Shown here: positions 12,126 through 34,201 of the stretch, in pieces
How the letters are laid out: each line of letters starts with the position of its first letter
How positions within the stretch are numbered: the stretch's first letter is position 1
Assembly (NCBI GenBank): GCA_021163845.1
Contig: JAGGTH010000078.1
Location: 2,607 to 66,606, forward strand
DNA: 64,000 bases
Direction of reading: 5' to 3'
Source: Helicobacteraceae bacterium
Lineage (GTDB): Bacteria; Campylobacterota; Campylobacteria; Campylobacterales; Sulfurimonadaceae
The notes under the pieces: generated by a model
The model's input: only the letters and a program-made list of their open reading frames with translations
Told to the model about the DNA's origin: nothing
Database searches by the model: none
Made by a program: the position numbers and the translations under genes

Positions 12126-12153
12126 GTCACAAAATTTATACATGGAGTTCAAA

Positions 12154-14253
12154 ATGACATCAAAGAAAAAGATAGCACTAAGTGCGCTCGTAGCTGCAAT
12201 GGTTGCCTTTACAGGTTGTGGAAGCAGTAGTAGTGGAGATGATACAACTACACCAACAACGCCAACTGAGCCTACAACACCGACTGAACCAACTACACCG
12301 GTTGAGACAAACTCAACAATGTTCACAGGAACATCAGCAGAGACACTTCAAGCAAAATTTGATGCTCAAAGTGATGTAGTGTATCCTGCTCTTGCAAAAG
12401 AAACTATTGCGAGTATCATCAGTACTGACACAACTCTTACGAATGATAAGATCTGGATCATTGATGGTTTAGTAACAGTTCAAAGTGGTGCTACACTTAC
12501 AATCGAGCCAGGTACTGTTGTTGCTGGTAAATATGGTACTGCTGATAATTCAAGTTATATGGTAATTGATGCTGGTGCTAAGATCATGGCTGATGGTACA
12601 GCTGATGCACCAATTATATTCACTTCTGAAAAAGCTGTTGATGGTGAAACGCCTGCTGTTGGTCAATGGGGTGGTTTAACTCTTATTGGTAACGCTGGAA
12701 ATGATCAAGTAAAACCTTATGAAGTAAATGAAGATTTCGTCGCAGGTACTTCTGATATGGCTGACAACTCTGGTGTACTTCGCCATGTTAAAGTATTAAA
12801 CTCTGGTATCACTATGGCTGAAGATAAAGAGATCAATGGTTTAAGCTTTGTTGGTGTTGGTTTTGGAACTACTGTTGAAAACATCACAGTTGATCTCTCA
12901 GATGATGATGGTATTGAGCTTTGGGGTGGTACTGTAAACCTTGCAAACATCACTATCTCAAGATGTACAGATGATCACTTCGACTTTGATGATGGATTCT
13001 CTGGGCTTGTAACAAACCTTGTTATTAACAACACTATGGGAAATGCTGGTATTGAGATGTCAGGTAACACTGCTGCTACAATTGATGGATTCAACATCAC
13101 TATGACTGATACTGCTAAAGAGGGTGGTATCTATTTCAAAGGTACTGGTATTGGTGGTACTCTTAAAAATGGTACAGTAACTTATATGGTTCCTGATAAT
13201 GGTTATGGAGCTATCCACTCTAACGATGTTATTGATGCAGATAATACTTCTTTTGAAAATGTATCCCTTGTAACAAATAGTGCTTCTCAAAATATTACAG
13301 GAACATCAGCAGAGACACTTCAAGCAAAATTTGATGCTCAAAGTGATGTAGTGTATCCTGCTCTTGCAAAAGAAACTATTGCGAGTATCATCAGTACTGA
13401 CACAACTCTTACGAATGATAAGATCTGGATCATTGATGGTTTAGTAACAGTTCAAAGTGGTGCTACACTTACAATCGAGCCAGGTACTGTTGTTGCTGGT
13501 AAATATGGTACTGCTGATAATTCAAGTTATATGGTAATTGATGCTGGTGCTAAGATCATGGCTGATGGTACAGCTGATGCACCAATTATATTCACTTCTG
13601 AAAAAGCTGTTGATGGTGAAACGCCTGCTGTTGGTCAATGGGGTGGTTTAACTCTTATTGGTAACGCTGGAAATGATCAAGTAAAACCTTATGAAGTAAA
13701 TGAAGATTTCGTCGCAGGTACTTCTGATATGGCTGACAACTCTGGTGTACTTCGCCATGTTAAAGTATTAAACTCTGGTATCACTATGGCTGAAGATAAA
13801 GAGATCAATGGTTTAAGCTTTGTTGGTGTTGGTTTTGGAACTACTGTTGAAAACATCACAGTTGATCTCTCAGATGATGATGGTATTGAGCTTTGGGGTG
13901 GTACTGTAAACCTTGCAAACATCACTATCTCAAGATGTACAGATGATCACTTCGACTTTGATGATGGATTCTCTGGGCTTGTAACAAACCTTGTTATTAA
14001 CAACACTATGGGAAATGCTGGTATTGAGATGTCAGGTAACACTGCTGCTACAATTGATGGATTCAACATCACTATGACTGATACTGCTAAAGAGGGTGGT
14101 ATCTATTTCAAAGGTACTGGTATTGGTGGTACTCTTAAAAATGGTACAGTAACTTATATGGTTCCTGATAATGGTTATGGAGCTATCCACTCTAACGATG
14201 TTATTGATGCAGATAATACTTCTTTTGAAAATGTATCTATCGTAGTTGAGTAA
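12154..14253 (+). CDS. Secreted beta-helix-type lipoprotein with two identical domains
   Basis: Lipobox AFTGC, PTTPTE linker; each domain has IEPGT, PIIFTS, GQWGG, DNSG, EINGL and DDGIELWGGTVN motifs typical of lipoproteins encoded beside TonB-dependent receptors. Start moved to the ATG after GGAG. Confidence 0.8.
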   Translation: MTSKKKIALSALVAAMVAFTGCGSSSSGDDTTTPTTPTEPTTPTEPTTPVETNSTMFTGTSAETLQAKFDAQSDVVYPALAKETIASIISTDTTLTNDKIWIIDGLVTVQSGATLTIEPGTVVAGKYGTADNSSYMVIDAGAKIMADGTADAPIIFTSEKAVDGETPAVGQWGGLTLIGNAGNDQVKPYEVNEDFVAGTSDMADNSGVLRHVKVLNSGITMAEDKEINGLSFVGVGFGTTVENITVDLSDDDGIELWGGTVNLANITISRCTDDHFDFDDGFSGLVTNLVINNTMGNAGIEMSGNTAATIDGFNITMTDTAKEGGIYFKGTGIGGTLKNGTVTYMVPDNGYGAIHSNDVIDADNTSFENVSLVTNSASQNITGTSAETLQAKFDAQSDVVYPALAKETIASIISTDTTLTNDKIWIIDGLVTVQSGATLTIEPGTVVAGKYGTADNSSYMVIDAGAKIMADGTADAPIIFTSEKAVDGETPAVGQWGGLTLIGNAGNDQVKPYEVNEDFVAGTSDMADNSGVLRHVKVLNSGITMAEDKEINGLSFVGVGFGTTVENITVDLSDDDGIELWGGTVNLANITISRCTDDHFDFDDGFSGLVTNLVINNTMGNAGIEMSGNTAATIDGFNITMTDTAKEGGIYFKGTGIGGTLKNGTVTYMVPDNGYGAIHSNDVIDADNTSFENVSIVVE
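12325..14237 (+). repeat. 941-bp direct repeat (12325-13265 and 13297-14237), period 972 bp
   Basis: Protein halves are identical; antisense ORFs 12717-12953 and 13689-13925 are identical; unique 31-bp spacer at 13266-13296. Confidence 0.95.
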
Positions 14254-14285
14254 CTCTTTGCTTTAATAAATTCTTCCTTCTTTAA

Positions 14286-14311
14286 AGGTGGGCATCTCGC
14301 CCACCTCTTTT
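14286..14311 (+). terminator. Intrinsic terminator
   Basis: AGGTGGGC-ATCTC-GCCCACCT stem followed by CTTTT. Confidence 0.8.
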
Positions 14312-14326
14312 CTCTCTTGTGTCTTC

Positions 14327-14382
14327 TTGTCACCAAATTGTAACTAAAGAGTAACTTTGTTGTAATCCCAATTTTATAGACT
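14327..14382 (+). promoter_or_regulatory. Pho-box-like array (4 half-sites) plus -10 element
   Basis: TGTCAC 14328, TGTAAC 14339, AGTAAC 14350 and TGTAAT 14361 at 11-bp period; 10 nt later TAGACT (14377-14382). Confidence 0.75.
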
Positions 14383-14409
14383 TTCATATCTTAAAACTTC
14401 AATGGGGAT

Positions 14410-15174
14410 ATGACCATGTCAAAAACAAAACTCAGTATACTCCTAAGTGTCTTGCTTAGTTGCTCAAGCGCTCAGGCAAGCTCGCAAAACCTAGTCGAAT
14501 CACTTATGAAATTACGTGCGGATGTAGAACGCCTTGATAGTGCTATCGTCTCTGAAAAAGAGGATTATAGTGCAACTATACGATCACTCATGCGCCAAAA
14601 AGATGATCTTAGTTCTGTAGTTGCACGTGAAGAACTTAGTATCAAACAAACTCGCCAAGAGCTTGATAAAGTACGCAAAGAGATAACCGAGGCTTCTAAA
14701 AACTCTGAAGGTCTCAAGCCCCTTTTACTTGAAGCTATAGAGAGACTTCAGGCAAATATCCAAAGCTCTCTCCCTTTCAAAACAAAAGCGCGTCTCGCAG
14801 ATCTTGCTAAAACAAAAGAGCAGATCGAGACAGACCTCATCACTCCACAAAAAGGTCTTGCACTGATCTGGAACGCTTACACAGATGCAATGCGTATGAC
14901 AAAGGAGAATGGTCTATTTAAACAAACAATCTCCCTCAACGGAGAAGACAGACTTGCAGAAATAGCTCGTGTGGGAACGATGATGCTTTTCTTTAAGACA
15001 CCTGATAACCAAGTAGGCTACGTAGAAAAAGATGCAAATGGCTACAGCTACCGTGAAGCACAAACAAAAGAGAGCCAAGAGCAGATACTCTCCCTCTTTG
15101 ATGCCTTTAAAAAGCAGATCAGAACAGGGTACTTTACCCTCCCTGATGCGATTCTTTCAATGGAGACAAAATAA
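14410..15174 (+). CDS. DUF3450-like periplasmic coiled-coil protein (TtpB-like)
   Basis: Signal peptide, coiled coil, LPF..ARL and RVG motifs; first gene of a TonB2-type operon. Confidence 0.7.
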   Translation: MTMSKTKLSILLSVLLSCSSAQASSQNLVESLMKLRADVERLDSAIVSEKEDYSATIRSLMRQKDDLSSVVAREELSIKQTRQELDKVRKEITEASKNSEGLKPLLLEAIERLQANIQSSLPFKTKARLADLAKTKEQIETDLITPQKGLALIWNAYTDAMRMTKENGLFKQTISLNGEDRLAEIARVGTMMLFFKTPDNQVGYVEKDANGYSYREAQTKESQEQILSLFDAFKKQIRTGYFTLPDAILSMETK

Positions 15175-16484
15175 TGAAAAAAATATTTTTAACCCTACTG
15201 ACACTTTGTACTTTTTTAAGTGCAGATGAAACGAACTTACAAAAAGCGTATGCCAAAGAGTTTGCTTACCTCAAAGCACAAAAAGAGATGCTCACGCAAA
15301 GACTTCAAGAGGTTCAGATACAAAATGATGCGAAGCTACGTGACGCAAAAAAAGATATTACAAGTCTTGAAAAAGAGGTACTGGCTAAAAATGCTCTGAG
15401 TGAAAAACTCTCCGATGAGCTTTTCCGTGCAAGACAAAACTTTCAGATGCTCGGTGATGATACAGCACTTGTAGAATCGGTACTGATGCAAGCAACAAAT
15501 ACACTCAAACCTCACAGTATTGATATAGTGGTAGATAAAGAACACTACCAAGAAGCACTTCGTAGCATCTTTGTAAATACAGATAAGCTTATCAGAGAGC
15601 TCTCTTCTCTTCGTACAGTATCGGGTAAATTCTACGCCCAAGATGGAAGCGAAGTGCAAGGGCAGATCATCCAAGTAGGAAATATTGCAAGTTACGGTAT
15701 CTCTGCAAATCTTAGTGGTGCTCTTGTTCCTGCAGGTGATGGCAAGCTCAAGATCTATAAAGCTCCAGAAGCTGCGCAAAGTGCTAAAGCACTTTTAAAT
15801 AAACAAAGTCCAAGTGAGCTCAATATCTTTGTATATGAAAACGCAAGCAAAGAGATCGAAGATGTAAAAGAGAAAACGATCATAAGCATCATTAACTCAG
15901 GTGGAATCATCGGTTGGGTGATCGTCTTTTTAGGTCTTATAGGTGTTTTACTTGCTATCTTGCGTGCTTTCTTCTTAATGGGTGCGAGCACTACAACCGA
16001 TACCCTTACAAGAGACACGCTTCAAACACTCCTTAAAGGTGGTGTTGAAGATGCTCTAGAGTTTCTCAAAAACAAAAGAGGCTCAACAGCGCGTGTACTC
16101 AAAGCAACTGTACGTAATCTTGATCGTGACCGTGAGCATATCGAAGATATCGTCGCGGAGTCTATCTTACATGAGAGTAGCCGTTTAGATAAATTTGGCT
16201 CTGTGATCCTAGTAATTGCAGCTGTATCACCTCTGCTTGGTCTTTTAGGGACGGTGACAGGGATGATAGCAACTTTTGACATCATCACCGAGTTTGGTAC
16301 AGGTGATCCGAAGCTTCTCTCAGGTGGTATCTCTATCGCACTTGTAACAACGGAGCTTGGTTTGATCGTGGCGATTCCTATCTTAATGATAGGTAATCTT
16401 TTAGGTGGATGGGCTGAGAAAGTAAAAGACTCTATGGAGCACTCAGCACTTCACCTCATCAACGAATACAACAAACAAAAATAA
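15174..16484 (+). CDS. TtpC-like large MotA/TolQ/ExbB-family protein
   Basis: Large periplasmic N-domain plus SPLLGLLGTVTGMI and GGISIALVTTELGL. Confidence 0.85.
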   Translation: MKKIFLTLLTLCTFLSADETNLQKAYAKEFAYLKAQKEMLTQRLQEVQIQNDAKLRDAKKDITSLEKEVLAKNALSEKLSDELFRARQNFQMLGDDTALVESVLMQATNTLKPHSIDIVVDKEHYQEALRSIFVNTDKLIRELSSLRTVSGKFYAQDGSEVQGQIIQVGNIASYGISANLSGALVPAGDGKLKIYKAPEAAQSAKALLNKQSPSELNIFVYENASKEIEDVKEKTIISIINSGGIIGWVIVFLGLIGVLLAILRAFFLMGASTTTDTLTRDTLQTLLKGGVEDALEFLKNKRGSTARVLKATVRNLDRDREHIEDIVAESILHESSRLDKFGSVILVIAAVSPLLGLLGTVTGMIATFDIITEFGTGDPKLLSGGISIALVTTELGLIVAIPILMIGNLLGGWAEKVKDSMEHSALHLINEYNKQK

Positions 16485-16485
16485 G

Positions 16486-17091
16486 ATGCAACTCTTAGAG
16501 CAATTCTTAGGCTATATGCAAAGCGGTGGCTTTGTGATGTGGCCACTGGCAATTCTCGTACTTGTACTTTGGTACGCGCTTGGGTATCGATTTCATACCC
16601 TCAAACGTGGCTCAAATGCCAATGTGCGTAACCTTGTGAGGAAATTTAGCCAAGGGATACGAAGTGAGCCGCAAGGGCTTATAGATGGAGCAATCGTAGA
16701 GGCACTCAAAGTGATCAAAACTCATGGGGCAAACAAAAACTCTCGAAAACTTCTTGATGATCTTTTTAGTGAATGGCTTGTGGTGATAAAGCGCTACAAA
16801 ACAACTATCAAAACGATCGTTATCGTAGCTCCGCTCATTGGTTTATTAGGGACAGTTTCAGGGATGATTGAGACTTTTGATTCACTTGCATCTGCTGAGC
16901 TTTTTTCACAAACAGGGGGGATAGCAGGGGGAATTTCCCAAGCTCTCTTTACAACGCAGCTCGGACTCGTTGTAGCAGTCCCTGGGCTTATAATGGGTCG
17001 TATGCTCGATAAAAAAGCTGCCAATATGGAGCTAGAACTTGAGCAAATCAAAGATATTTTATGTTCTGAAGGGGTAACAAATGAGATTTAG
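16486..17091 (+). CDS. exbB: ExbB/TolQ proton channel protein
   Basis: APLIGLLGTVSGMI, GGISQALFTTQLGL. Confidence 0.88.
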   Translation: MQLLEQFLGYMQSGGFVMWPLAILVLVLWYALGYRFHTLKRGSNANVRNLVRKFSQGIRSEPQGLIDGAIVEALKVIKTHGANKNSRKLLDDLFSEWLVVIKRYKTTIKTIVIVAPLIGLLGTVSGMIETFDSLASAELFSQTGGIAGGISQALFTTQLGLVVAVPGLIMGRMLDKKAANMELELEQIKDILCSEGVTNEI

Positions 17092-17485
17092 AAACAAAAA
17101 AACGGATGAGCTTGGCGTAGATATGTCGCCACTTATCGATATGGTTTTTATCCTGCTCATATTTTTTATGGTGAGTTCTACTTTTGTTAAAGATATGAAG
17201 TTAGACCTCAACCGTCCAGGTGCATCTTCGGCGAGCAAAGCATCTAGCAAAGTAGTGCGTGTGTATATCGATCAAGCAGGTGATACCTATGTGGACAATC
17301 AGCCTGTCAAAGTATGGGCGATTCAAGGGCGTCTTCGAGATCTCCTTCGTGCCTCTACAGAGCAATCGGTACTTGTGATCACAGACAACACTATTCCTGT
17401 AGATAAACTGATCGAAGTGGTCGATCAGTGCCGTATGGCTGGGGCAAAAGATGTTGCCGTGGCAACTGAAAAAGAGGTTGGATAA
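17081..17485 (+). CDS. exbD: ExbD/TolR biopolymer transport protein
   Basis: DMSPLIDMVFILLIFFMV. Confidence 0.92.
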   Translation: MRFRNKKTDELGVDMSPLIDMVFILLIFFMVSSTFVKDMKLDLNRPGASSASKASSKVVRVYIDQAGDTYVDNQPVKVWAIQGRLRDLLRASTEQSVLVITDNTIPVDKLIEVVDQCRMAGAKDVAVATEKEVG

Positions 17486-17486
17486 G

Positions 17487-18113
17487 GTGAAAGATCTAAA
17501 AAACCATCTCAAAGCATCTTTATGGATGGTTTTTGGCTTATTTTTTGTTTTTAGCACAGTGATACTTATGAACAGTGAATCAGATGTAGGAAACACTGAG
17601 TCAAAAAAAGAGAGTGCTGCCTTTGAGATACAAAAGATCTCAAAACCAAAGCCCAAGCCAAAACCAAAGCCTAAGCCAAAACCAAAGCCTGCACAAAGTA
17701 AGAGAGTCGCACCCTCCCCTTCACTTGCATCGAGTCTTAGTGGAATCGATACAGGTTTAGAGAACTTTATGAGTGCAGACTTAGAAGATGGCTCCCTCTT
17801 AGGTGATGTCGATAAAGATGTCGTCATGAGTGAAGAGAGTGTAGATGAAGCACCTACTCCTACACAAAGAGGCGCTATGGAGTACCCAAAAGCAGCAAAA
17901 AAAATGGGGCTCAAGGGCTATGTTGTTGTCAACCTTCTTATCAATAAAGAGGGTGAAGTAGAAATGAGCAAAGTCTTAGAATCAGAACCTGCAGGCGTTT
18001 TTGATGATGTGGTACTTGAGGGTGTCAGAACATGGAAGTTTAAACCCGCACAATACAAGGGTGAAGCTGTAAAAGTATGGGCAAAACAGAAGGTCCGTTT
18101 TGATTTTCAATAA
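17487..18113 (+). CDS. tonB: Energy transducer TonB
   Basis: N-terminal transmembrane helix, PKPKPK linker, YPKAA...WKFKPA C-domain. GTG at 17487 preferred over the track start at 17451. Confidence 0.9.
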   Translation: MKDLKNHLKASLWMVFGLFFVFSTVILMNSESDVGNTESKKESAAFEIQKISKPKPKPKPKPKPKPKPAQSKRVAPSPSLASSLSGIDTGLENFMSADLEDGSLLGDVDKDVVMSEESVDEAPTPTQRGAMEYPKAAKKMGLKGYVVVNLLINKEGEVEMSKVLESEPAGVFDDVVLEGVRTWKFKPAQYKGEAVKVWAKQKVRFDFQ

Positions 18114-18125
18114 AAAGAGTACAGA

Positions 18126-19274
18126 ATGAAAAAATTATTATTACTACCAATTCTTTTAAGCCTCACACTTACACTGCTTGAGGCAAAGAAAAAAACAGAT
18201 GAAATAGATCATGTTGCGCTCGCCGCACTTTTGTTGCGTGATGGGCATATACAAAAAGCTGCAGATGAGTTAGGAAGTGTTGATCTTGAAGATAAGAGTA
18301 TCGATCTCATGCGCTTCTATACGCTCAAAGCACTTGTAGCATCCAAGCAAGGTCTTTATAAAGAGTCAAATCAATTTTTCTTAGAGTCTATAAAAGCTGG
18401 TCAAGAGGATAAAACCATCTTCTTATATATGGCACAAAACTCTTTTAAACTTCAAGAGTATAAAGAGTCACTTGGCTATTTAGATGCTGCAGGAGACCTC
18501 GCACTAGAAAAGCCTTCCCTCTTCTCACTCCGAGCAGAGCTGTACTGGAGACTAGATCAAAAAGAGAAAAGTTTTGAAGTGTTAGAGCGTGGAATGCAAA
18601 AGTTTGACAATGAATACACACTTTTAAAACAGCGCTTTTTTTACTCTATGTCTCTTGGGCTTTACCAAAGTGCACTTGATGATGCGCACCTTTATCTCAA
18701 CCATGCAAAACTTGATGAGCAAAGTGCCCTTGTATTTATCAATGCCTTTAAAAAAGCGAATCAATTAGATGATGCTATCGCTTTGGCCGAAGAGCTTCTT
18801 TTGCAATTTGATAAAAGTGCGAAACTTACGGCTCTTTTGGCATATCTTTATATCGACAAAGGGATGCTGCAAAGTGCAGCTGATCTCTTTGATAAAGCAT
18901 CCATTAAAGATGAACTTTACACTAAAGAATCCGCCGAACTGTATCGCCGTGCGAAAAACTTTGTGCTCTCTTTATACAAAAACTCACAACTTCTTGATAC
19001 CAAAGAGAAGCTCAAACAACGCATCGCCATCTATTTAGAATATGGCGCTTACGAAAAGGTGGTTGTGAGTCACAATGCACTCTTGCGAAGTGGACTTTTA
19101 GAAGATGAAAATATTCGCTACGCACTTGCATACTCCTACTACATGGTAGGTGATTTTGATGCTTGTGAGAAAGAACTCAGACAACTTAGCTCCTCAGATC
19201 TTTTCAAAAAAGCAACAGAGCTGAGAAAAAATATACAAAAATGTAAAACCGATGGTTGGGAGTGTGAATTATGA
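18126..19274 (+). CDS. TPR-repeat protein (TtpD-like)
   Basis: Signal peptide and helical TPR-like repeats; follows tonB as in TonB2/TonB3 operons. Confidence 0.7.
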   Translation: MKKLLLLPILLSLTLTLLEAKKKTDEIDHVALAALLLRDGHIQKAADELGSVDLEDKSIDLMRFYTLKALVASKQGLYKESNQFFLESIKAGQEDKTIFLYMAQNSFKLQEYKESLGYLDAAGDLALEKPSLFSLRAELYWRLDQKEKSFEVLERGMQKFDNEYTLLKQRFFYSMSLGLYQSALDDAHLYLNHAKLDEQSALVFINAFKKANQLDDAIALAEELLLQFDKSAKLTALLAYLYIDKGMLQSAADLFDKASIKDELYTKESAELYRRAKNFVLSLYKNSQLLDTKEKLKQRIAIYLEYGAYEKVVVSHNALLRSGLLEDENIRYALAYSYYMVGDFDACEKELRQLSSSDLFKKATELRKNIQKCKTDGWECEL

Positions 19275-22438: not shown

Positions 22439-22446
22439 AGAACATA

Positions 22447-22499
22447 GTTACAAGAGACGAACCTCTTGTAACCAAAGTGAAATACAAAAGATTTAAAAT
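22447..22499 (+). promoter_or_regulatory. Inverted repeat overlapping a Pho-box-like site, plus -10 element
   Basis: GTTACAAGAG/CTCTTGTAAC 10-bp inverted repeat; TGTAAC 22467 and TGAAAT 22478; 10 nt later TAAAAT (22494-22499). Confidence 0.6.
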
Positions 22500-22528
22500 C
22501 ATTGAATAAAAAAAAAGGTTTTGAGCAT

Positions 22529-23212: not shown

Positions 23213-23292
23213 ACACTCACGAACCTCGTGCAGACTAAAGCCTGTGTAACCAAAGAGATGCTATACTCATTTTATTTTTTAAGGCTCTTTGG

Positions 23293-23691
23293 ATGTATAG
23301 ACTTTTTCTCCTCATTTTACTTCAAACTCTGTTATTCCCCCTTTTTGCGCAGGATTTTTATTATAAACAAAACAAAAAAGTTCTACTCACACCCGTTCAA
23401 GATGTTACGATAGTACTACAACGCTCTTCTGGGATGCAAGGGCTCAAATACTACAAGACTCCAAGAGATGTGATCGTAGGTGTAAGCGATGAGATTCTTT
23501 TACATACACGAGAGATCGATGCAGTTGCGCAAGAGTATGGACTCACACTTATTCAAGAACTCTCTACAAACCTCTATCTCGTACGCTTTAGCGATCAAAA
23601 TAGGACGCTCCAACAAGCCAATAGGGTCCATGAGGACGCGCGTGTAAAATTTGCACATCCTAATTTTTACAAGCAGGTACAAAGACGATGA
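23293..23691 (+). CDS. Secreted small protein resembling a subtilase prodomain or external chaperone
   Basis: Signal peptide; C-terminus V.FAHPNF resembles the end of S8 prodomains; overlaps the start of the S8 gene. Confidence 0.55.
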   Translation: MYRLFLLILLQTLLFPLFAQDFYYKQNKKVLLTPVQDVTIVLQRSSGMQGLKYYKTPRDVIVGVSDEILLHTREIDAVAQEYGLTLIQELSTNLYLVRFSDQNRTLQQANRVHEDARVKFAHPNFYKQVQRR

Positions 23692-25073: not shown

Positions 25074-25085
25074 CTCGCTGAGAGT

Positions 25086-25610
25086 TTACTCTTCATTGAG
25101 CGGCACCACTTTATAAAGCAACGCATCCTCCTCTGCAAAATCAATATGTACAAGATATGACGAAGCAGCATTATTCCCCTCCCCACTTTGCGCATAAACA
25201 CGAAAACCCTTTACCTCGCCCAAGGACTCTCCAAAAAAATCACTATCACTCTCTAAAGGATAGTTCTCAAACGGACGTAAAGATTCTAAACGGTAAAGCT
25301 CTTTGTCTTTTTTGATATATGCCACATAGGGATGTATACGTCCGTAGAGGGAGTTATTTGTCTGCATGAAGACGACATCCTCATCTTTATTTTGATTGAG
25401 AATCTTGACAGAGTTGTAGTGCGCAAGGGTAAAATCTAGATACACCGTCTGCTTTTTTTTCAGATAGCTCCCAAGCTCTTGTGATTTTTCTGCAAAGAAA
25501 TTGTTGGTGACATGAAGTTGGGCATAACTTTTGTACAAGAACAAAACCATAATTGAGAAGATAACGATCGAGACCATCATCTCCATGAGAGTAAAAGCAT
25601 TGTGTTTCAT
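25086..25610 (-). CDS. T2SS minor pseudopilin, GspJ-like
   Basis: Prepilin motif AFTLMEMMV. Confidence 0.75.
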   Translation of the reverse strand: MKHNAFTLMEMMVSIVIFSIMVLFLYKSYAQLHVTNNFFAEKSQELGSYLKKKQTVYLDFTLAHYNSVKILNQNKDEDVVFMQTNNSLYGRIHPYVAYIKKDKELYRLESLRPFENYPLESDSDFFGESLGEVKGFRVYAQSGEGNNAASSYLVHIDFAEEDALLYKVVPLNEE

Positions 25611-26065
25611 GGAACGCGCAACCTCAAAATAGAGGCATTACTCTTTTGCTCAAAAAGAAGTGAGGTTTTGCCTATCTCAAAAACCATACTTGCTTGATTT
25701 TTCTCTTTTTGATCCTCTTGATACTCATCAGGAGCATCCTCTTTGACATCAAACTCACTCATATCTAGAGTATAGAGTTCATTGTAAGCTATTTTGAGCT
25801 TGATGGTTTTGAGCTTTTTTCGCAACGCATCTTCGAGATCATACCCCTCAAGCAAGCGATCCATATCAAGTGAATCACTCTCAAAACCATATTTTTTATT
25901 CGCTACCAAAAAACTAAGATAACCATTTGACTCCATCTCTTGGACACTCTTCGTATAGATAAAACTACTATTACCATTCATGGTGTAGAGCGCCATCACA
26001 ACAGTGGAGATGATCAAGACACTTATCATCACCTCTATGAGAGTAAAACCCTCTCTCTTAGCCAT
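25607..26065 (-). CDS. T2SS minor pseudopilin, GspI-like
   Basis: Prepilin motif GFTLIEVMI. Confidence 0.75.
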   Translation of the reverse strand: MAKREGFTLIEVMISVLIISTVVMALYTMNGNSSFIYTKSVQEMESNGYLSFLVANKKYGFESDSLDMDRLLEGYDLEDALRKKLKTIKLKIAYNELYTLDMSEFDVKEDAPDEYQEDQKEKNQASMVFEIGKTSLLFEQKSNASILRLRVP

Positions 26066-27581
26066 GACTTAGCCCGATACGAATCGCCTCATCCAAAGAG
26101 GTCTCTCCTTTGAGCAGATAATATTTAAGTTGTGTGGCGATTGTTTTGAGCCCTTCTTTTTCAAGGGCTTCTCTTATGCTATGCTCATCTGTTGTAGTTT
26201 TGAGCAGATTTTTAACACTATCGCTCATAACAAGAAGCTCTCCGATGGAGCGACGTCCTGCGTATCCACTGTAGCCACATTTTCTACACCCACAGGCTTT
26301 ATAGATCTTGGCATCAAGTGGGAGGTCATAATCTTTTGAAAACTCTTCAGCGAGAATATCTTCTTCTTTACACTCTTCACACAGCACACGCAAAAGCCTT
26401 TGTGCCAAAATACCTAAGAGTGAGGAGCTGATCAAAAAGGGTTCGATCCCCATATCTGCAAGGCGCGAGATGGTCGCCGCTGCTGAGTTGGTATGTAGCG
26501 TTGAAAACACCAAGTGTCCCGTGAGTGCTGCACGCACAGCGATATTTGCTGTCTCTTCATCACGGATCTCCCCGATCATAATAACATCTGGATCTTGACG
26601 CAAAATAGAGCGAAGTGCCGCGGCAAAGGTAAGCCCCACTTTTTCATTTACTTGGATCTGTGCGATCGAATCTGATTTGTACTCTACAGGGTCTTCAACG
26701 GTGATGAGATTTTTATCAGGGGATTCTACTTCACGCAAAAAAGAGTGAAGAGATGTGGTCTTTCCACTCCCTGTTGGTCCTGTAACCAAGATGATCCCAT
26801 GAGAAGCACGCAAGAGTTTACGAATATCACCGATCACATCTTCATTAAAGCCAAGCTCTGTGATCTGGGGGATCTGAGAGCTTTGCATCAAAAGCCTCAT
26901 AACCACACGCTCCCCATAGAATGTTGGCAAGATAGAGACCCTTACATCCAAGGTCTCTCCAGCTATTTTGATCTGCGTTCGTCCATCTTGTGGGATACGC
27001 TTTTCTGAGATATCAAGGTTTGAGATAACCTTGATACGACTCACGATAAGAGCGACCACTTTTTTATCAAGGTCTGCATTTTTAATGAGCATCCCATCGA
27101 TCCTAAAGCGAACTTCCCCTTTTTTCTCTTGTACCTCTATGTGAATATCTGATGCTTTTTTCTTGATCGCTTGATAAAAAAGAGCGTTGACGAACTTGAT
27201 AATAGGAGCTGATTCTTCACTTGTTAAGATATCGCTGCTTGTACGCAAAAAATCTGTGAGGGAGATATCCTCTTCATTTTGCTCTTGGTTCTCCTCTTGC
27301 ATACTCTCCATAGCTCTGTCTGTACGGAGCTCTAAAAAGCGGTTGTAGAGTCTCTCATAAGAGTCTTCATCAACAAGGCGCAAAGGGTAGCGCTCTGGAA
27401 GCTTGGTATAAAAGTTACTCGCTTCTATTAAGTAACGCTCACACGCAATCGCACTGATCTCTCCCTCTATGCGAGAAAAAAGCAGATAGTTCTTTGTTAA
27501 AAGATCACTTGCAAAACCCTCAAGCTCACAAACCTCTAACTCTAGATCATGAAGCGGTTCTAACTCTAGCATCTTACTCAC
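26058..27581 (-). CDS. gspE: T2SS ATPase
   Basis: ASDIH, RIPQDGR, TGPTGSGKTT, VEDPVE, LRQDPD, GEIRD, TLHTN and CxxC pairs. Confidence 0.95.
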   Translation of the reverse strand: MSKMLELEPLHDLELEVCELEGFASDLLTKNYLLFSRIEGEISAIACERYLIEASNFYTKLPERYPLRLVDEDSYERLYNRFLELRTDRAMESMQEENQEQNEEDISLTDFLRTSSDILTSEESAPIIKFVNALFYQAIKKKASDIHIEVQEKKGEVRFRIDGMLIKNADLDKKVVALIVSRIKVISNLDISEKRIPQDGRTQIKIAGETLDVRVSILPTFYGERVVMRLLMQSSQIPQITELGFNEDVIGDIRKLLRASHGIILVTGPTGSGKTTSLHSFLREVESPDKNLITVEDPVEYKSDSIAQIQVNEKVGLTFAAALRSILRQDPDVIMIGEIRDEETANIAVRAALTGHLVFSTLHTNSAAATISRLADMGIEPFLISSSLLGILAQRLLRVLCEECKEEDILAEEFSKDYDLPLDAKIYKACGCRKCGYSGYAGRRSIGELLVMSDSVKNLLKTTTDEHSIREALEKEGLKTIATQLKYYLLKGETSLDEAIRIGLSHG

Positions 27582-29457
27582 CCTCTAGCCGAATAATCTG
27601 TGTGCCCTTTGGGGTCTCTAGCTCCTCTGAAGCTTTTTTAAATTCACCTTTTTCAATCTCTTCAAAAATAATATCATTATATTTTTGTTGCAAATTTGCC
27701 AAAACTCCTAGCTCTCTTTGAAGCTCTGAGAGTTTTTCACTTTTATCTACGATATAAGGTGTCAAAATCACGACTAAATTACTCTCCTCTACCGAAGAAC
27801 TTCTTGAACTAAAGAGCCACTCCCCAAGCCAAGGAATATCACCAAGCAAAGGTACTTTAGAGATATTTTCAGACTGTGTATTTTTCACCAATCCACCAAT
27901 AATAATATTTTCACCATGTCCTAAAATTGCTTGTGTTTTCACCTCTTGCTTGGACGTGATCGGTTGTTGACCTGTTGAAGCATCTCCATAATCATCTACC
28001 CCTTCCATGATCGCTTCAACATTCAAGGTCACCTTATCTGTAGAAGAAACACGTGGTTTGATCTTTAAAGTAAGCCCCACATCCTCACGTTTATAACTAT
28101 TTGTCGTTCCTGGAACAGATGTCGCACTTGAAGTTACACTTCCAGTGGTGATAGAGATCGTTTGCCCCACATAGATAGAGGATTCTTGATTATTCACACA
28201 CAAGATAGAGGGATTTGAGACCAGCTGTGAAGCACCTTTCTTTTCTAAGAAGTCAAGTGCAGCACCGAGCGCAAAACCAGCTGTTATATCACTACTACTC
28301 CCTGTAATCTGCCCTGTTAGAGCACTTCCTACGATCCCTTGAACAGGTGCACCACCAAAATTCGTAGCTAAAGAGTAGAGCCCATCTGTTGTTAAAAATG
28401 CTCCGTCGAATCCATAACGAATTCCTATATTTTCTGCATCACTATTAAATATATTGACTATGCGCGCTTTGACGTACACCTGAAACTTCTCTTTATCAAG
28501 CTCATCAATAATAAGCTTGATCCCACTGATCACCGATGGGTCCCCTACTGCTATGACACCATTGATCTCTTCGCTTGCAGAGATATTTGGCTTGAGAGAA
28601 GGATCTGCAAAAGTTTGCTTGGAGATAATATCATTGAGACTTGCCACCACTGAGGCCACATCTGAATTTTTGAGTATAAAGATCTGCACTGCCTTGTTTG
28701 CGATCTCTATATCCATCTTCGTGATAAGCTCCTCTATCTTTTCAACATTTGCCTCTTTACCTACAAGAACCAAACTATTAGAGTTTTCATCAAGGACGAT
28801 CTTGACCATCTCACCATCTACTTTTTCGTTAAATAAAGATTTAGAGATATCATTCAAACGCGCTTGGAGTTTTTTGATCTCTGTATATTTGATAGGCACA
28901 AGCTTTACAATATTTTTGTATTTTGCATCGATTTGAACGATCACTTTTTTGATCGTTTCTATGTTCTTAGGATAATCTGTAATGAGGATCGCGTTCGTCT
29001 CTTTCATCGTCATCAACTTTGCAGCAGTTGAGAGTAAATAGCGAATCTTTGCCGCAACTATATCAACGTTTTCCCACTGTACATCGATCACTTGTGTCGT
29101 CATGAGTGCACCATTGACGCTTACCCCAGTTTTTTCCACCTTATAAGTACTTTTTGCCGCATCGTTGGAGCGTACCACTTCATACATCGAGCCATTTTCT
29201 ATAAGTGTAAACCCTTTGGACTCAAGGACTGAGATCAGTATATCCATAAGCTCTGTATCGTACACAGGAGCAGAACTCACCATATCGACACTTCCTGTTA
29301 TCTTGTGGGTAATAAGTATATTTTTGTTTGTGATCTTACTGACCAGACGAACAAACTCATCGATCTCTAGGTTTGAAAAGTTAATATTAACCTGCTCTTT
29401 TGCTCCTAGTGTTGCAACCAACACAAGTGCTACGAATATATGCTTAACGAACTTCAT
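27574..29457 (-). CDS. gspD: T2SS secretin
   Basis: N0-N3 domains; GLTLKIKPRV, IIGGL and KVPLLGDIPWLG secretin motifs. Confidence 0.93.
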   Translation of the reverse strand: MKFVKHIFVALVLVATLGAKEQVNINFSNLEIDEFVRLVSKITNKNILITHKITGSVDMVSSAPVYDTELMDILISVLESKGFTLIENGSMYEVVRSNDAAKSTYKVEKTGVSVNGALMTTQVIDVQWENVDIVAAKIRYLLSTAAKLMTMKETNAILITDYPKNIETIKKVIVQIDAKYKNIVKLVPIKYTEIKKLQARLNDISKSLFNEKVDGEMVKIVLDENSNSLVLVGKEANVEKIEELITKMDIEIANKAVQIFILKNSDVASVVASLNDIISKQTFADPSLKPNISASEEINGVIAVGDPSVISGIKLIIDELDKEKFQVYVKARIVNIFNSDAENIGIRYGFDGAFLTTDGLYSLATNFGGAPVQGIVGSALTGQITGSSSDITAGFALGAALDFLEKKGASQLVSNPSILCVNNQESSIYVGQTISITTGSVTSSATSVPGTTNSYKREDVGLTLKIKPRVSSTDKVTLNVEAIMEGVDDYGDASTGQQPITSKQEVKTQAILGHGENIIIGGLVKNTQSENISKVPLLGDIPWLGEWLFSSRSSSVEESNLVVILTPYIVDKSEKLSELQRELGVLANLQQKYNDIIFEEIEKGEFKKASEELETPKGTQIIRLEGE

Positions 29458-30262
29458 AAACTATCTCCATCTCTTGATTATTTCTCATGAATATGATTTG
29501 TACACTTTTAAGCGTATCGATCTTTTCATAGATCGCTATGGCATCTTTGTAGGATGTAAGCTCTACATTGTTTGCTTTGGTAATCAAATCACCTTTTTGC
29601 AAGCCTAGCTTTTCAAAGGGTGAATTTGGCGCAATACGCTTCACCTCAAATCCTACGATCTTCCCTTTTTCTTTACGCTCTTGTATCGCTATTTGCTTCC
29701 ATATCTCTTTTGGGTTTTTTGCATAAAAATTGATATCATTTTTTGCCACTCCCACCGGTTTTGAGATATCTACACTCGGAGTTTTTTTTGTTTTAGTATA
29801 AGAGCGTACAGATTTTTTGCCCTCATACTCCATCTCTAAGATATAGGTCTGAGCACCTTTTTCAAACACTGCACTCTCAAGTTCTATACCTACGAGCTTA
29901 AAACCGCTAAAGGACTCACCAACAGCGATCACTTCAGAATTTTTAGGGCTTGCTTTGAGGGCTATCACCACCACCCCACTCTCCCCTTTGCCATAGAGCC
30001 CTTTGAGGATCATGTTGGTGATACTTATTCCCGCTTGTGAATCGCTTTGTGCATTTGTTGGCTTTTCCTCTTTTGCATACGAGAGCATACTCTCAAAACT
30101 GTAACGAACATAAGGGGGCTGGTAATTCTCACTCTCTTGGTATGACACTCCCTCATGAGGTAAGAACCAGAGCAAAACAAGACTTGAAAGTTTTACCACT
30201 AAAACCAAAACAAGTAACTTGAAGAGATATGTAAAGAGCGATGTCTTAGAGATCTTTTGCAT
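29444..30262 (-). CDS. GspC-like protein with PDZ domain
   Basis: N-terminal transmembrane helix, HR-like region, PDZ motif FEKLGLQKGDLI. Confidence 0.8.
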   Translation of the reverse strand: MQKISKTSLFTYLFKLLVLVLVVKLSSLVLLWFLPHEGVSYQESENYQPPYVRYSFESMLSYAKEEKPTNAQSDSQAGISITNMILKGLYGKGESGVVVIALKASPKNSEVIAVGESFSGFKLVGIELESAVFEKGAQTYILEMEYEGKKSVRSYTKTKKTPSVDISKPVGVAKNDINFYAKNPKEIWKQIAIQERKEKGKIVGFEVKRIAPNSPFEKLGLQKGDLITKANNVELTSYKDAIAIYEKIDTLKSVQIIFMRNNQEMEIVYEVR

Positions 30263-30776
30263 AGCTATACTCCCCAGTTTTCTCTTTTTTTAGATGACGC
30301 AAAGCATGTGCGTACTCTTTTCTCATCTTTGGTGAAGGGTTCATAAAGATCATAACTGTTCTGTTGATGAGATCAAGCTTTCCTGTAAGCTCACCAAAGC
30401 CACCTTTTGCGTAGATATTGACTGCTACGGGGTTAAAGAGATGATAACTCAACTCCACAGATTCTACATCCAAAGGTACAAATGATTTTGCAGCGTGTGA
30501 GAGCTCTATATTCCTAAGTGTCACACTATTGGTGAATACCCAAGGGCTGATTTTGAGCTGCTCAATATTTGCACTCTCGATCCCCTCAAAATAAACCTTA
30601 GCATCTCGGAGTTCAAGTGAAAAGCCACTATCGTGAAGCTTCTCATTTGAGATCACAATTTTAAGAGGTTCAAGCTGTTTCTCAGCCAAGTAAAAGAGCT
30701 CTACTTTTGGAAGAAAAAAGAGCACCATCGCCAAGAAAAAGAAAAGATATCCAAAAAATTTTGCTATTTTTACCAT
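30246..30776 (-). CDS. GspN-like T2SS accessory protein
   Basis: Single N-terminal transmembrane helix (FFLPK) and operon position. Confidence 0.5.
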   Translation of the reverse strand: MVKIAKFFGYLFFFLAMVLFFLPKVELFYLAEKQLEPLKIVISNEKLHDSGFSLELRDAKVYFEGIESANIEQLKISPWVFTNSVTLRNIELSHAAKSFVPLDVESVELSYHLFNPVAVNIYAKGGFGELTGKLDLINRTVMIFMNPSPKMRKEYAHALRHLKKEKTGEYSYAKDL

Positions 30777-31177
30777 TGGATCTCCAATCTTATACGCGCT
30801 TTTTCGTCGCTAATACGTTGCAAGTTTATCTCTTTGATCTCATAGGAGCCATTGAGTATTTTACCCATAAGAGTATTGAGATTGGCAAGGTCAATACTCA
30901 TTGCCGAGATCACCGTATTTTTTTTACTCTCTACCTTATTCAGCTCTACCCCTTTTGCTTGGAGCTGTTTGATAAGCTGATCGAGCTTTGACTGGAGCAC
31001 TTTTTCTTGCGTATAGACACTTTTGATCCCATTGAGGCGAAGTGCGAGCTCACGGGTCTCTTGATAAGAATTTGCTTGCTCTTTATATTCCTCTTTTGCC
31101 TTTGAAAGTTGAAACACACTAAAGAGAAAAAAGATCACCAAAAGCCCTAGGATGTAGAGAGGATTTATCTTATTCAT
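30770..31177 (-). CDS. GspM-like T2SS platform protein
   Basis: Transmembrane helix, coiled coil, small ferredoxin-like tail; operon position. Confidence 0.55.
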   Translation of the reverse strand: MNKINPLYILGLLVIFFLFSVFQLSKAKEEYKEQANSYQETRELALRLNGIKSVYTQEKVLQSKLDQLIKQLQAKGVELNKVESKKNTVISAMSIDLANLNTLMGKILNGSYEIKEINLQRISDEKARIRLEIQW

Positions 31178-32088
31178 AGTTTCACCTCACATACGAGCTT
31201 CTCTTGTGATTTTTTCGCACTCAAATCAAGCCCCTCTTTTTTGAGAATATTTTCTATCTTTTGTGCATTTTTTGTTTGAAACTCTACTATAAGTTTTTCC
31301 CCTTTGAGCTCAAGACTCACAAGTTTTTCATCGCCACTGAGCTTTGGCGCTATCACTTTTGCAATACTCTCACGTATCTTCATCTGTTTTGTATGCAGTG
31401 CTTCATATTTTTTGAGCATCGCTTTGTTTTGCATCATTGTTTGTTTGAGCTTATACTTGCTAAAAAGTTCCTCTTTTTGGCTTTGTATCTGCGAGGCATC
31501 GCTTTGGATCTTATATGCCTGGGCTAAAAACATCACAGCGAGTACAAAGACAGCCACACTCAAACGATAAAAGACCGAGGTATCAACTATATGATGAAAA
31601 AGGGAGAGTTTCACTTTATGTTTTGAAAGCTCTAAGGTCTCTACATCAAGGGGCTCTAAATCCCCAAGCCAAGTTTTTTGTAATACAAGTACGATGTCAT
31701 CTTTGGATATAAGTGCGTGTGTATCAGAGATACTCACAGGGTTTTGCAGTCCTACTAGCTCACTTTGGGCAAAATAAACAGCCTCGACATTGGAACCAGT
31801 AAGACCTTTTTGCTCCATCAATGAGAGGATCTTTTTATCATCATAGGCAAAAGCTATGTAATGATCCCCCTCTTTATACGCTTCATAACTGTAATTTCCC
31901 TCTATGAGGTGCTCTTCAAATAAGGAGGGCAAAAGTTTTTTCACCTCCCTGAGATACTTGATAGGAACACTCAGTTTTTTCACCCAATACAAGGAGGGAG
32001 AGAGGATAACATTCACCTTCTCCTGAGATGTATAAGCATCACTTTCATAGTCCAAAAAGATCGTCTTACACTTAGATTTCGTAAACAA
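31174..32088 (-). CDS. GspL-like T2SS platform protein
   Basis: Cytoplasmic domain, one central transmembrane helix and periplasmic coiled coil; operon position. Confidence 0.55.
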   Translation of the reverse strand: MFTKSKCKTIFLDYESDAYTSQEKVNVILSPSLYWVKKLSVPIKYLREVKKLLPSLFEEHLIEGNYSYEAYKEGDHYIAFAYDDKKILSLMEQKGLTGSNVEAVYFAQSELVGLQNPVSISDTHALISKDDIVLVLQKTWLGDLEPLDVETLELSKHKVKLSLFHHIVDTSVFYRLSVAVFVLAVMFLAQAYKIQSDASQIQSQKEELFSKYKLKQTMMQNKAMLKKYEALHTKQMKIRESIAKVIAPKLSGDEKLVSLELKGEKLIVEFQTKNAQKIENILKKEGLDLSAKKSQEKLVCEVKL

Positions 32089-32986
32089 AATTAGACCCTT
32101 TCTTTGATTTCATATCATATTCGAATACGACACTCGCTTTGAGATCGTTTTGGAACATCGTCACCTTTACAAAAAGTACACTTTCATAAAATGAGATATT
32201 AAAACGCCCAAGCCTCTCTTTTTCAAAATCACTCAGCTCAAAACACTCATAATTACTACACATTCCAGCCAAAGCATAAAGCTGCTCGGCACGTGCTTCT
32301 TCACATCCCAAGAGAAACTTCCAAACCTCAGGCTTTGCAAAATTAAGATCAATAGGAGTGTCTCTATTTTTTGAGTAATAGAAGAGCGAATCAAAATCTA
32401 TTTGCGTATGTGTATTATAACGATATCTGTCACGAAAATAATCATTCAAGTACCCTAGATGTGCTTTTGAAGCGAGATAATCTCGAAAAAGTTTGGGATG
32501 TAGGGTAAAGATATCTGTATTGTAAGAAAAGTCCTCTTTAATACCCATCATCGCATCGAGTAAAAGATCAGCATAGATATAATCAACATTATAGCGACTG
32601 AGATATTCTTTGAAGGTATCAACTCTTTGGATGTTGAAGGTGCTGTTTGTGTCTTTAAAAACATTAGGGTTGATCTTAGAACGTGCAGATTCTATCTCTA
32701 AGATCACCTCCATCTCATTGGTGCTGAGTGGAAGGTAGCCCACTTGAGACAAAAAAACATAGAGCCCCTCACTTGAGTTGCTATCTACGATACTATCGAG
32801 CTCTTTAGAGCTTTTTAAAAGACTCAAAACATCATCTAAAAGTAAACGTGTTTGGAGTAAAAACTTCTCTTTTTGGATATCGCTTGCCATAGAGTTGACA
32901 TGGCGCAAGCCAATACCTACAAGGACCGTAATCGCGATGATAAAAAAAAGGGTAATAAGCAGAGCTATACCGTTTTTACTTCGCAT
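32072..32986 (-). CDS. GspK-like pseudopilin
   Basis: KNGIALLITL N-terminus (class III signal without Glu5), IDLNFA helix-hairpin-helix region. Confidence 0.7.
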   Translation of the reverse strand: MRSKNGIALLITLFFIIAITVLVGIGLRHVNSMASDIQKEKFLLQTRLLLDDVLSLLKSSKELDSIVDSNSSEGLYVFLSQVGYLPLSTNEMEVILEIESARSKINPNVFKDTNSTFNIQRVDTFKEYLSRYNVDYIYADLLLDAMMGIKEDFSYNTDIFTLHPKLFRDYLASKAHLGYLNDYFRDRYRYNTHTQIDFDSLFYYSKNRDTPIDLNFAKPEVWKFLLGCEEARAEQLYALAGMCSNYECFELSDFEKERLGRFNISFYESVLFVKVTMFQNDLKASVVFEYDMKSKKGSNFVYEI

Positions 32987-32989
32987 CTC

Positions 32990-34201
32990 TCACCCTACAC
33001 TCATCGAAAAGATAGGTAAAAGCATCGCGGCAACAATAAAACCGATGCTTCCCCCAACAAAAAGCATCAAAGCGGGCTCTAAGAGGGTAAGTAAAAAAGA
33101 GATCTTGTCGCGATTTTCTTCAAAGTAAAGCTCCGAAACATTGGTAAGCACACTCTCTAATTCCGAGGTCTCCTCCCCAAGAGCAAGCGCTTGAACGAAA
33201 CCAAAATCAACATACTTAGAATCAGCGATCGCCTTTGAGAGCACTTTTCCCTCAACCACCTGACTTGAGGCTTTGACAAACAGTTCTTTGAGTACACGGT
33301 TGTTTAAGATATTGGCACTGAGATTGATCGTCTGCACAAATGGTACGCCAGAACGCACCAAGAGTGATGCCATATAAGCAAAACGTGCAAGCTCACTCTT
33401 TTGCACGATAGCCCCGAAATAAGGCATAGAGAGCACAAATTTATCCACAAGATAGGCAAAAGAGTAGATCTTCTTTTTCGCGATCACAAAGAGCGATACA
33501 CCCACAAAAATGAGAACAAGTAAGAGTTTGTAGTTGTTGTTAAAAAAATCACCCATAGCGATCACGAACTGTGTAGGGCGCGGAAGCTCTTGGTTCATAC
33601 TCTCAAAGATACCCGTGATCTGTGGCACAACAAAGCTAAGCATAAAAGCGATCATAAGCAAAGAGATCACGATCATAAAACCAGGATATGCAAAAGCCCC
33701 TTTTATCTCTTTGGCAATGCGCTCTTGCTCTTTTAAAAAGCGGGAGAGTTCGAGTAAGACTTCATCTAAAATACCTCCATTTTCACTCACTTTAATAGAG
33801 TGTTTGAAAAACTCAGGAAGCTCCACGACACTCTGCTCTTCGAGTGCTGTATAAAAGTTCTTTCCCTCATCGAGATGTGTACCGACAGTACTTAAAAAGA
33901 GTGCGATTTTTTTGTTGTTTTGATAGTGTGTCTGCACGATTTTGATCGCCGAGACGATACTGATACCCGAGCGGATATACATAGAGAGTTCGCGAGAGAG
34001 TGCTGAGAGCTCTTTGGGTGGGATCTTGTAGCGCATAGAAAAAGAGAAATTCTCAAGCAAAGATGCACTCTCTTGTGAAATACTCTGCAATAGTATCTTC
34101 TTTGCTTTTATCTTTGCTTTTGCCTCTTCAAGCGAGGTGGCTTCTACCTTTTGTTTGAGCTTTTTGCCACTCTCATCAATCCCTACATATTTAAATAACA
34201 A
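32990..34201 (-). CDS. gspF: T2SS inner-membrane platform protein
   Basis: Two T2SSF domains (SGISIV..A, AFAYPGF, GEETSEL, LLEPALM); TTG start with GAGGG Shine-Dalgarno. Confidence 0.93.
   Translation of the reverse strand: MLFKYVGIDESGKKLKQKVEATSLEEAKAKIKAKKILLQSISQESASLLENFSFSMRYKIPPKELSALSRELSMYIRSGISIVSAIKIVQTHYQNNKKIALFLSTVGTHLDEGKNFYTALEEQSVVELPEFFKHSIKVSENGGILDEVLLELSRFLKEQERIAKEIKGAFAYPGFMIVISLLMIAFMLSFVVPQITGIFESMNQELPRPTQFVIAMGDFFNNNYKLLLVLIFVGVSLFVIAKKKIYSFAYLVDKFVLSMPYFGAIVQKSELARFAYMASLLVRSGVPFVQTINLSANILNNRVLKELFVKASSQVVEGKVLSKAIADSKYVDFGFVQALALGEETSELESVLTNVSELYFEENRDKISFLLTLLEPALMLFVGGSIGFIVAAMLLPIFSMSVG

Follow-up and report, generated by a model that had tools for sequence, protein, structure and literature searches.

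A probable phosphate-starvation uptake module combining an ElpS-type lipoprotein with a TonB-dependent receptor and a Ttp-type motor in a sulfur-oxidising campylobacterotal bacterium

Introduction

Phosphate-regulated secretion is known from Pseudomonas aeruginosa, where the Hxc type II secretion system (T2SS) with the alkaline phosphatase LapA is encoded beside TonB/ExbBD-like genes. Here we compare this and other described systems with a locus of a sulfur-oxidising Helicobacteraceae bacterium (Sulfurimonadaceae; assembly GCA_021163845.1, genome of 2.24 Mb). The window, that is the whole stretch of DNA analysed, comprises 64,000 nt of contig JAGGTH010000078.1 (2,607-66,606, forward strand), and the focus is on its positions 12154-34201. 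We suggest that positions 12081-23212 of the window probably make up an uptake module for phosphate starvation (Pho regulon), one that pairs an ElpS-type lipoprotein with a TonB-dependent receptor.

In Caulobacter crescentus the gene elpS (CC0170) is adjacent to the receptor gene CC0171 and to gspC-N, and the same layout is found in a Sphingomonas species (Le Blastier et al. 2010, PMC2996285). ElpS is an outer-membrane lipoprotein without a recognised enzyme domain, which is made under phosphate starvation; it is released by the T2SS, and its surface display is independent of the T2SS (PMC2996285). The PhoB regulon of Caulobacter takes in the T2SS, pst and several receptors (PMC11208175). The ElpS-related FI, FII and FIII lipoproteins of Flavobacterium johnsoniae (PUSIII/PUSIV) are strongly induced at low phosphate, give polygalacturonase-like models and are encoded next to receptors (Lidbury et al. 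2020, PMC8115612). One of the Flavobacterium clusters contains phoBR and one includes an outer-membrane protease, and plant cell-wall phosphorus was suggested as the target (PMC8115612). As for the motor, the TonB2 and TonB3 systems of Vibrio vulnificus have the order TtpB-TtpC-ExbB-ExbD-TonB-TtpD, and the TonB3 operon also holds an outer-membrane receptor; TonB2 is Fur-controlled and serves iron uptake (PMC6957404).

Results

Gene organisation of the module

Gene content was established from a listing of open reading frames (ORFs) together with Pfam and NCBIfam profile scans. The module is laid out as three predicted transcription units on the + strand, namely a lipoprotein gene, a seven-gene operon (ttpB-ttpC-exbB-exbD-tonB-ttpD and the receptor gene) and a regulator gene. 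The lipoprotein gene (12142-14253) encodes a two-module beta-helix protein of the ElpS type with 703 aa, which belongs to Pfam family PF28492. A terminator-like hairpin at 14286-14306 (+) closes this unit before the motor-receptor operon begins.

The operon starts with a TtpB-like DUF3450 protein (14410-15174), followed by a TtpC-like long MotA/TolQ/ExbB protein of 436 aa (15174-16484), ExbB (16486-17091), ExbD (17081-17485), TonB (17451-18113) and a TtpD-like protein with tetratricopeptide repeats (TPR; 18126-19274), the stop codon of which overlaps the start of the gene for a TonB-dependent receptor of 1055 aa (19271-22438). By Pfam, ttpB (DUF3450), ttpC, exbB, exbD, tonB and ttpD (TPR) are all present and stand in the order of the Vibrio TonB2/TonB3 systems (PMC6957404), as the preliminary description of this DNA had stated. 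The other genes it listed are found as well, and the beta-helix it proposed for the lipoprotein is borne out by AlphaFold2. The receptor has two N-terminal CarboxypepD_reg-like domains, followed by plug and barrel. Its best-scoring subfamily is TonB-Xanth-Caul, and it is the sole receptor of its kind in the genome. The third unit, at 22502-23212 with a likely ATG start at 22529, encodes an orphan OmpR/PhoB-like response regulator.

Pho-type boxes and promoters

Direct repeats of TTGTNAC phased at 11 bp stand upstream of the lipoprotein, DUF3450 and regulator units and of a prodomain-S8 protease unit that follows them. Pho-like boxes had been noted at four units, and we find them at 12081, 14327, 22466 and 23244, all on the + strand and each upstream of its unit. 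The array before the lipoprotein gene (12081-12113) consists of the 18-mer TTGTCACCAAGTCGAAAC, 10 nt and the hexamer TAAACT. Four phased TTGTNAC repeats precede the motor-receptor operon (14327-14370), and the regulator gene has TTGTAACCAAAGTGAAAT (22466-22483), 10 nt and TAAAAT. The site before the prodomain-S8 pair (23244-23261) is box-like, with a less canonical geometry. Of the 41 copies of the half-site TGT[ACT]ACC[AG]A[AG] in the whole genome (2.24 Mb), six fall within these 22 kb, where 0.41 are expected (Poisson 5e-6).

The same box type is found at phosphate genes elsewhere in the genome. The only PstB gene is located on contig C4 in a pstSCAB-phoU operon, in which PstC, PstA and PstB score over their curated cut-offs and the PstS-family and PhoU-like proteins are recognised below theirs. 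TTGTAACCAAAGTGTAAT stands 47 nt upstream of pstS. With a matrix made from the five sites of the window only, the pstS site takes ninth place in the genome, or fourth when only untrained sites are counted; with a matrix made from all six sites, the intergenic matches of at least 21 bits are those of pstS and of this island only. Weaker sites (14-17 bits), which stand before ccoN, pth and a FadL-like gene, are regarded as noise. Six phased repeats (TTGTNNC) stand in front of the sole PhoX-family gene of the genome (C84:3957-5831); the PhoA and PhoD families have no match in the genome. Five promoters, those of pstS, the PhoX-like gene, the lipoprotein gene, the DUF3450 gene and the regulator gene, share one geometry, with the 18-mer followed by 10 nt and a TAnnnT hexamer that ends 27-31 nt before the start codon.

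At C84:3957-7880 the PhoX-like gene (624 aa) is paired with a gene for a 658-aa protein, and the same pair follows the receptor and regulator genes in a Sulfurovaceae locus (L035).

Against the 19-bp Fur consensus no promoter of the locus beats background, with 7-10 mismatches in 19 positions; the best match before the DUF3450 gene has 8 mismatches, which is the background mode, although Campylobacterota Fur sites may differ from this consensus.

Conservation in relatives

The receptor was used to scan species-representative genomes, which gave 28 loci with receptors of 38-57% identity from Sulfurovum, Sulfurimonas, Sulfuricurvum, other Campylobacterota and Desulfobacterales. The content of these loci was judged by tblastn with all proteins of the window. 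Wherever a locus is long enough, the six motor genes lie ahead of the receptor gene; all 19 loci with sufficient flanking sequence have one or two lipoprotein genes beside the cluster, and a PhoB-like regulator gene follows the receptor gene in 13 loci. By the same searches, homologues of the S8 protease, the T2SS genes, a giant protein encoded beyond them and a 603-aa protein encoded upstream are found in none of the 28 loci. The preliminary description had proposed synteny and co-occurrence as a check on the whole 22 kb: the core is conserved wherever a locus is long enough, the S8 and T2SS genes are unlinked to it, and co-occurrence with secretins is uninformative. The latter follows from the counts within the family, in which secretins are present in 116 of 121 sampled genomes, with or without the receptor (54 of 121). 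The comparison supports 12081-22438 together with the regulator gene as the conserved functional unit, which would be energised by its own Ttp-type TonB motor. Only 2 of 15 other genomes of the window's genus have the receptor, and this patchy distribution in family and genus marks the cluster as an accessory module.

The promoters of the relatives show the same type of box. Under a strict pattern, 9 of 15 Campylobacterota loci have phased TGTAAC-type repeats before the DUF3450 gene, versus 2% of random 160-bp windows, and looser phased repeats are visible in most of the other Campylobacterota loci. The pst operons of relatives were located with the PstC family model (the PstS of this genome as a query gave no match in relatives at 1e-20), and the pst promoters of the four relatives with searchable genomes carry this box type. 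In at least six loci (L030, L032, L035, L038, L039 and L042) pstCAB-phoU lies within 10 kb downstream of the receptor gene, and PstS-type binding proteins, a PHO4 phosphate transporter and a PhoX-like phosphatase are among the products encoded in between. Phosphate control of the module is thus supported by the box and promoter geometry that it shares with pstS and the PhoX-like gene and by the box type of the pst promoters of relatives, together with the linkage to pst, PHO4 and PhoX genes. No related locus contains glycan-degrading neighbours.

Wider relatives of the lipoprotein were sought by tblastn of plasmid and chromid records and occur in Pseudoalteromonas, Alteromonas, Marinobacter, Bacteroidota, Sphingomonas and others. 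The order in Pseudoalteromonas is DUF3450-TtpC-ExbB-ExbD-TonB-TPR, beta-helix protein, receptor, and in Sphingomonas parapaucimobilis it is lipoprotein, receptor, gspN, gspD, gspE, gspF, gspG. The window lipoprotein and the Sphingomonas protein are 38% identical over 201 residues (BLASTP, E 3e-27), and both belong to PF28492; a search that started from the Sphingomonas homologue had Sphingomonas proteins alone among its matches. The window receptor can be aligned with the partner receptors of Pseudoalteromonas (E 3e-89) and Sphingomonas (E 8e-47), in both cases across plug and barrel in full. In the chromid of Pseudoalteromonas sp. CF6-2 (L059), phased TGTCAT/TGTAAC repeats are seen by eye upstream of both units (4930-5000 and 10250-10300).

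The lipoprotein

The protein starts with a lipoprotein signal that ends in the lipobox FTGC (N-terminus ...AFTGC), followed by a linker rich in Ser and Thr/Pro; the lipobox Cys is invariant across 36 homologues. The gene contains an exact internal duplication of 941 bp with a period of 972 bp (12325-13265 = 13297-14237), and a unique 31-nt junction parts the two modules. The counterpart in relatives is usually two diverged tandem genes or a diverged fusion (712 aa in L023). Since those copies have diverged and the modules here are identical, the 941-nt identity suggests a recent duplication or gene conversion, or an effect of the assembly. Campylobacterota contain a great many homologues, whose precomputed family is PF28492. 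A profile of the 36 homologues matched 8,726 clusters at 50% identity, and most top matches have 2-5 modules, so that a two-module protein is typical of the family.

AlphaFold2 models one module as a confident right-handed beta-helix (predicted local distance difference test, pLDDT, 85; predicted template modelling score, pTM, 0.80). The best fold matches in the PDB, all of them weak, are GH28 polygalacturonases, pectate lyases, alginate epimerases and tailspikes. A sequence search of the PDB gave zero matches, and neither this search nor the Pfam and NCBIfam scans matched the lipoprotein to a glycoside hydrolase or lyase family. Invariant acidic residues stand before the same short strand in four successive coils (D254-D256/E259, D277/D278/D281/D283/D284, E305 and E327). 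This pattern suggests an acidic face of stacked residues, with a possible role in cation binding or catalysis.

A distant beta-helix paralogue, with 40% identity across some 210 residues, is encoded in the same genome (C17:21281-22561). A signal or anchor sequence is present in it, a clear lipobox is not; one box half-site lies upstream, and no receptor gene is found nearby.

The regulator

The conserved Asp, Ser and Lys of the receiver domain are all present in the regulator. Its gene carries a candidate autoregulatory box, the 18-mer described above, with the geometry found at pstS, and this strong box places the regulator gene within the regulon. The closest paralogue in the genome (C18:27285-27959) is about 50% identical, and all other regulators are near 30%. 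The paralogue gene has a weaker box (16 bits) upstream and is followed by a gene for a 464-aa histidine kinase with an sCache-like sensor; the two may be the true phosphate sensor. In relatives, both paralogue types adjoin the receptor cluster, sometimes in tandem. The surrounding stretch, C18:25897-29605 (L058), consists of two tandem two-component pairs, one of them containing the paralogue.

The S8 protease pair and the T2SS

Downstream of the regulator gene, a secreted ORF of 132 aa (23293-23691, +) weakly matches the N-terminal prodomain of subtilases (Fervidolysin_NPro-like, E 0.008) and overlaps the start of the gene for an S8 subtilase lipoprotein with the lipobox LSGC (23688-25073, +). 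The small ORF may be the prodomain encoded as a separate protein. The protease is probably Pho-controlled in this genome only; in relatives it is unlinked to the module. TonB-dependent protease export of the Oar/PopC type was considered and rejected, because the S8 protein carries a lipoprotein signal of its own and none of the 28 related receptor loci encodes a homologue.

On the - strand, 25086-34201 contains genes of a T2SS, namely those of two minor pseudopilins, gspE, gspD, gspC, four genes with weak assignments (N/M/L/K-like) and gspF. Upstream of gspF, on its strand, lie a gene for an adhesin-like LVIVD/cadherin protein of 2519 aa (34301-41860) and a partner gene (457 aa; 41851-43224). 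The T2SS cluster had been taken to end at 34201, but it resumes past these two genes with a gspH-like gene and gspG at 43906-44856, where gspG (44434-44856) scores over its cut-off. The set thus comprises a GspC-like PDZ protein, a Secretin with N0 domain, T2SSE, T2SSF and GspG. As the gsp cluster encloses the gene for the 2519-aa protein, the latter is the obvious cargo candidate, and the T2SS is better explained as serving this embedded giant protein and as a separate neighbour of the module. A second GspD-like secretin is encoded elsewhere in the genome (C39:6048-7766).

In the spacer between the giant gene and gspF there are three phased box repeats (34253-34285, +). They point along the + strand, inverted with respect to gspF and antisense into the giant gene, with neither a TAnnnT at the canonical spacing nor a following ORF. 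Possible readings are a remnant of former regulation, a site for a repressor or an antisense promoter.

Discussion

Proposed mechanism

Judging from the composition of the regulon, we propose that the module would work as follows. When phosphate is scarce, a PhoB-like regulator, either that of the window or the C18 paralogue, would bind the boxes and switch the units on. The two-module lipoprotein would then sit on the outer membrane via its long Thr/Pro linker, and the conserved stacked ladder of Asp and Glu would capture a phosphorus-containing ligand. Most likely, this ligand would be an oligomer or polymer that is phosphorylated and bridged by cations, for example polyphosphate, fragments of nucleic acid or phytate-like esters. 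The receptor would import it, powered by its own six-protein Ttp-type TonB motor. In the periplasm a PhoX-like enzyme would free the phosphate, which PstSCAB would take up.

Several points weigh against this reading. The regulator, which the preliminary description called PhoB-like, does have a Pho-type box of its own, but it is one of two paralogues and falls below the curated PhoB cut-offs (TIGR02154, 161 versus 296 bits; NF053854, 166 versus 270 bits). It is the fifth-best PhoB-like match in the genome, in which no regulator exceeds the cut-off, and no kinase gene adjoins it. The boxes may be bound by either the window regulator or the C18 paralogue. The fold matches of the lipoprotein are those of a generic beta-helix (TM-scores 0.2-0.4, E 1e-3 or worse), so that ligand binding or catalysis is something the protein may do, and the identity of the ligand named above is a guess. 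Phased repeats stand before the DUF3450 gene in none of six Desulfobacterota loci. In Pseudoalteromonas sp. CF6-2 the chromid locus has no Pho box of the Escherichia coli type at up to 3 mismatches, and its module lies about 3 kb from an aerobactin-type siderophore cluster.

Alternative explanations

That siderophore neighbourhood, together with a gene order identical to that of the iron-serving Vibrio TonB2/TonB3 operons (PMC6957404), would fit uptake of iron or a metal chelate, as with the Fur-controlled Vibrio TonB2. We consider this very improbable, since Fur consensus matches stay at background level, the promoters share their box with pst and phoX, and the neighbours in relatives are phosphate genes and not iron genes. 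Capture of a carbon polymer is somewhat less remote, yet still improbable. Here the beta-helix protein would be a glycanase, and phosphate control would reflect phosphate bound to cell walls, as Lidbury et al. suggested (PMC8115612). The best fold matches, to polygalacturonases, pectate lyases and alginate epimerases, and the TonB-Xanth-Caul score of the receptor are in line with it. However, these fold matches are generic (TM-score at most 0.4), the sequence matches no glycoside hydrolase or lyase family, glycan-degrading genes adjoin the module in no locus, and its hosts are Sulfurovum-type bacteria and Desulfobacterales from sulfidic habitats. The presence of the lipoprotein-receptor pair in sulfur-oxidising Campylobacterota and in Desulfobacterales argues against a target specific to plant glycans and for a ubiquitous phosphorus source.

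The preliminary description united all 22 kb in one phosphate-scavenging machine, in which surface display of the lipoprotein falls to the T2SS and the S8 protease cooperates. The units are indeed adjacent here, with box-like sites before the S8 pair and in the spacer by gspF. Lipoprotein-receptor pairs lie beside gsp genes in Sphingomonas and in Caulobacter, where the T2SS belongs to the PhoB regulon and releases ElpS, and a low-phosphate cluster of Flavobacterium likewise has an outer-membrane protease (PMC8115612). The lipoprotein, motor and receptor unit and its phosphate control hold up. The extension to the S8 and T2SS genes is unlikely, although less so than the iron and glycan readings, as the homologues of S8, T2SS and giant genes are missing from all 28 related loci, secretins occur regardless of the receptor, and the gsp cluster encloses its own likely cargo. 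Display of the lipoprotein by the T2SS is not supported: linkage is lacking, the box by gspF is inverted and has no -10 element at the canonical spacing, and surface display in Caulobacter needs no T2SS (PMC2996285). A link between T2SS and lipoprotein is possible on the Caulobacter model; the synteny of relatives and the orientation of the box lend it no support here.

A broader scenario, to which we give little credence, would join a direct outer-membrane route for inorganic or mineral-associated phosphorus (polyphosphate or cation-bridged phosphate) to shedding by the S8 protease and antisense control of the adhesin. In this genome, cleavage of the Thr/Pro linker by the Pho-controlled protease would release the beta-helix modules, a step that depends on the T2SS in Caulobacter, and the inverted box by gspF would drive an antisense transcript that lowers the giant adhesin, so that starved cells detach. 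If such a direct route existed, Ttp-type TonB motors would be phosphate-dedicated energisers in chemolithoautotrophs.

Implications

Returning to the phosphate-starvation uptake module as we propose it, the ElpS-type pair is among the most strongly induced products of phosphate starvation in Caulobacter and Flavobacterium, and its family is very large. To our knowledge, nobody has established what the pair binds or imports, and this widespread module is biochemically unsolved. The receptor is built into an operon with a six-gene Ttp-type motor, which ties a class of iron-uptake motors to phosphate acquisition. From the comparison come a testable Pho box of the TTGTAACCAAAGTGTAAC type, set 10 nt ahead of the -10 element, and the prediction of a small Pho regulon in this group, made up of pst, the PhoX-like gene, this module, the regulator and the S8 protease. 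The cargo could be sought in cultured strains of Sulfurovum or Sulfurimonas that carry the module, as these would be simple systems.

Comparison with known systems

The locus resembles the ElpS system, in that the lipoprotein gene likewise lies beside a receptor gene, with T2SS genes nearby and predicted control of the low-phosphate type. The likeness runs via the Sphingomonas PF28492 homologue in an elpS-like position, CC0170 itself being compared by description. The relation is probably one of homology rather than analogy, by an indirect chain, because the window lipoprotein shares its Pfam family with the Sphingomonas lipoprotein in the ElpS-type position and a polygalacturonase-like fold such as its own is reported for the Flavobacterium relatives. 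Unlike in the ElpS system, the receptor gene here closes the operon of a six-gene Ttp-type TonB motor, the lipoprotein is made of two modules, the cluster includes a gene for a PhoB-like regulator, and relatives do not keep the T2SS together with the module. The Hxc system differs as well: the T2SS of the window shows no sign of phosphate regulation or of a phosphatase cargo, and its embedded candidate is an adhesin-like giant.

With Flavobacterium the window shares receptors that have N-terminal domains of the CarboxypepD_reg type beside polygalacturonase-like lipoproteins. The phylum and the lifestyle are different, however, a dedicated TonB motor is unreported there, and plant cell-wall phosphorus as a target is ill-suited to chemolithotrophs of sulfidic habitats. 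The likeness to Vibrio TonB2/TonB3 lies in the set of six genes and in their order, from DUF3450 to TPR; in contrast to TonB2, the operon of the window has a Pho-type box and no Fur-like box, and is joined to an ElpS-type receptor. Particular to this locus are its Campylobacterota host, the fusion of motor and receptor genes in one operon and a clearly defined Pho box.

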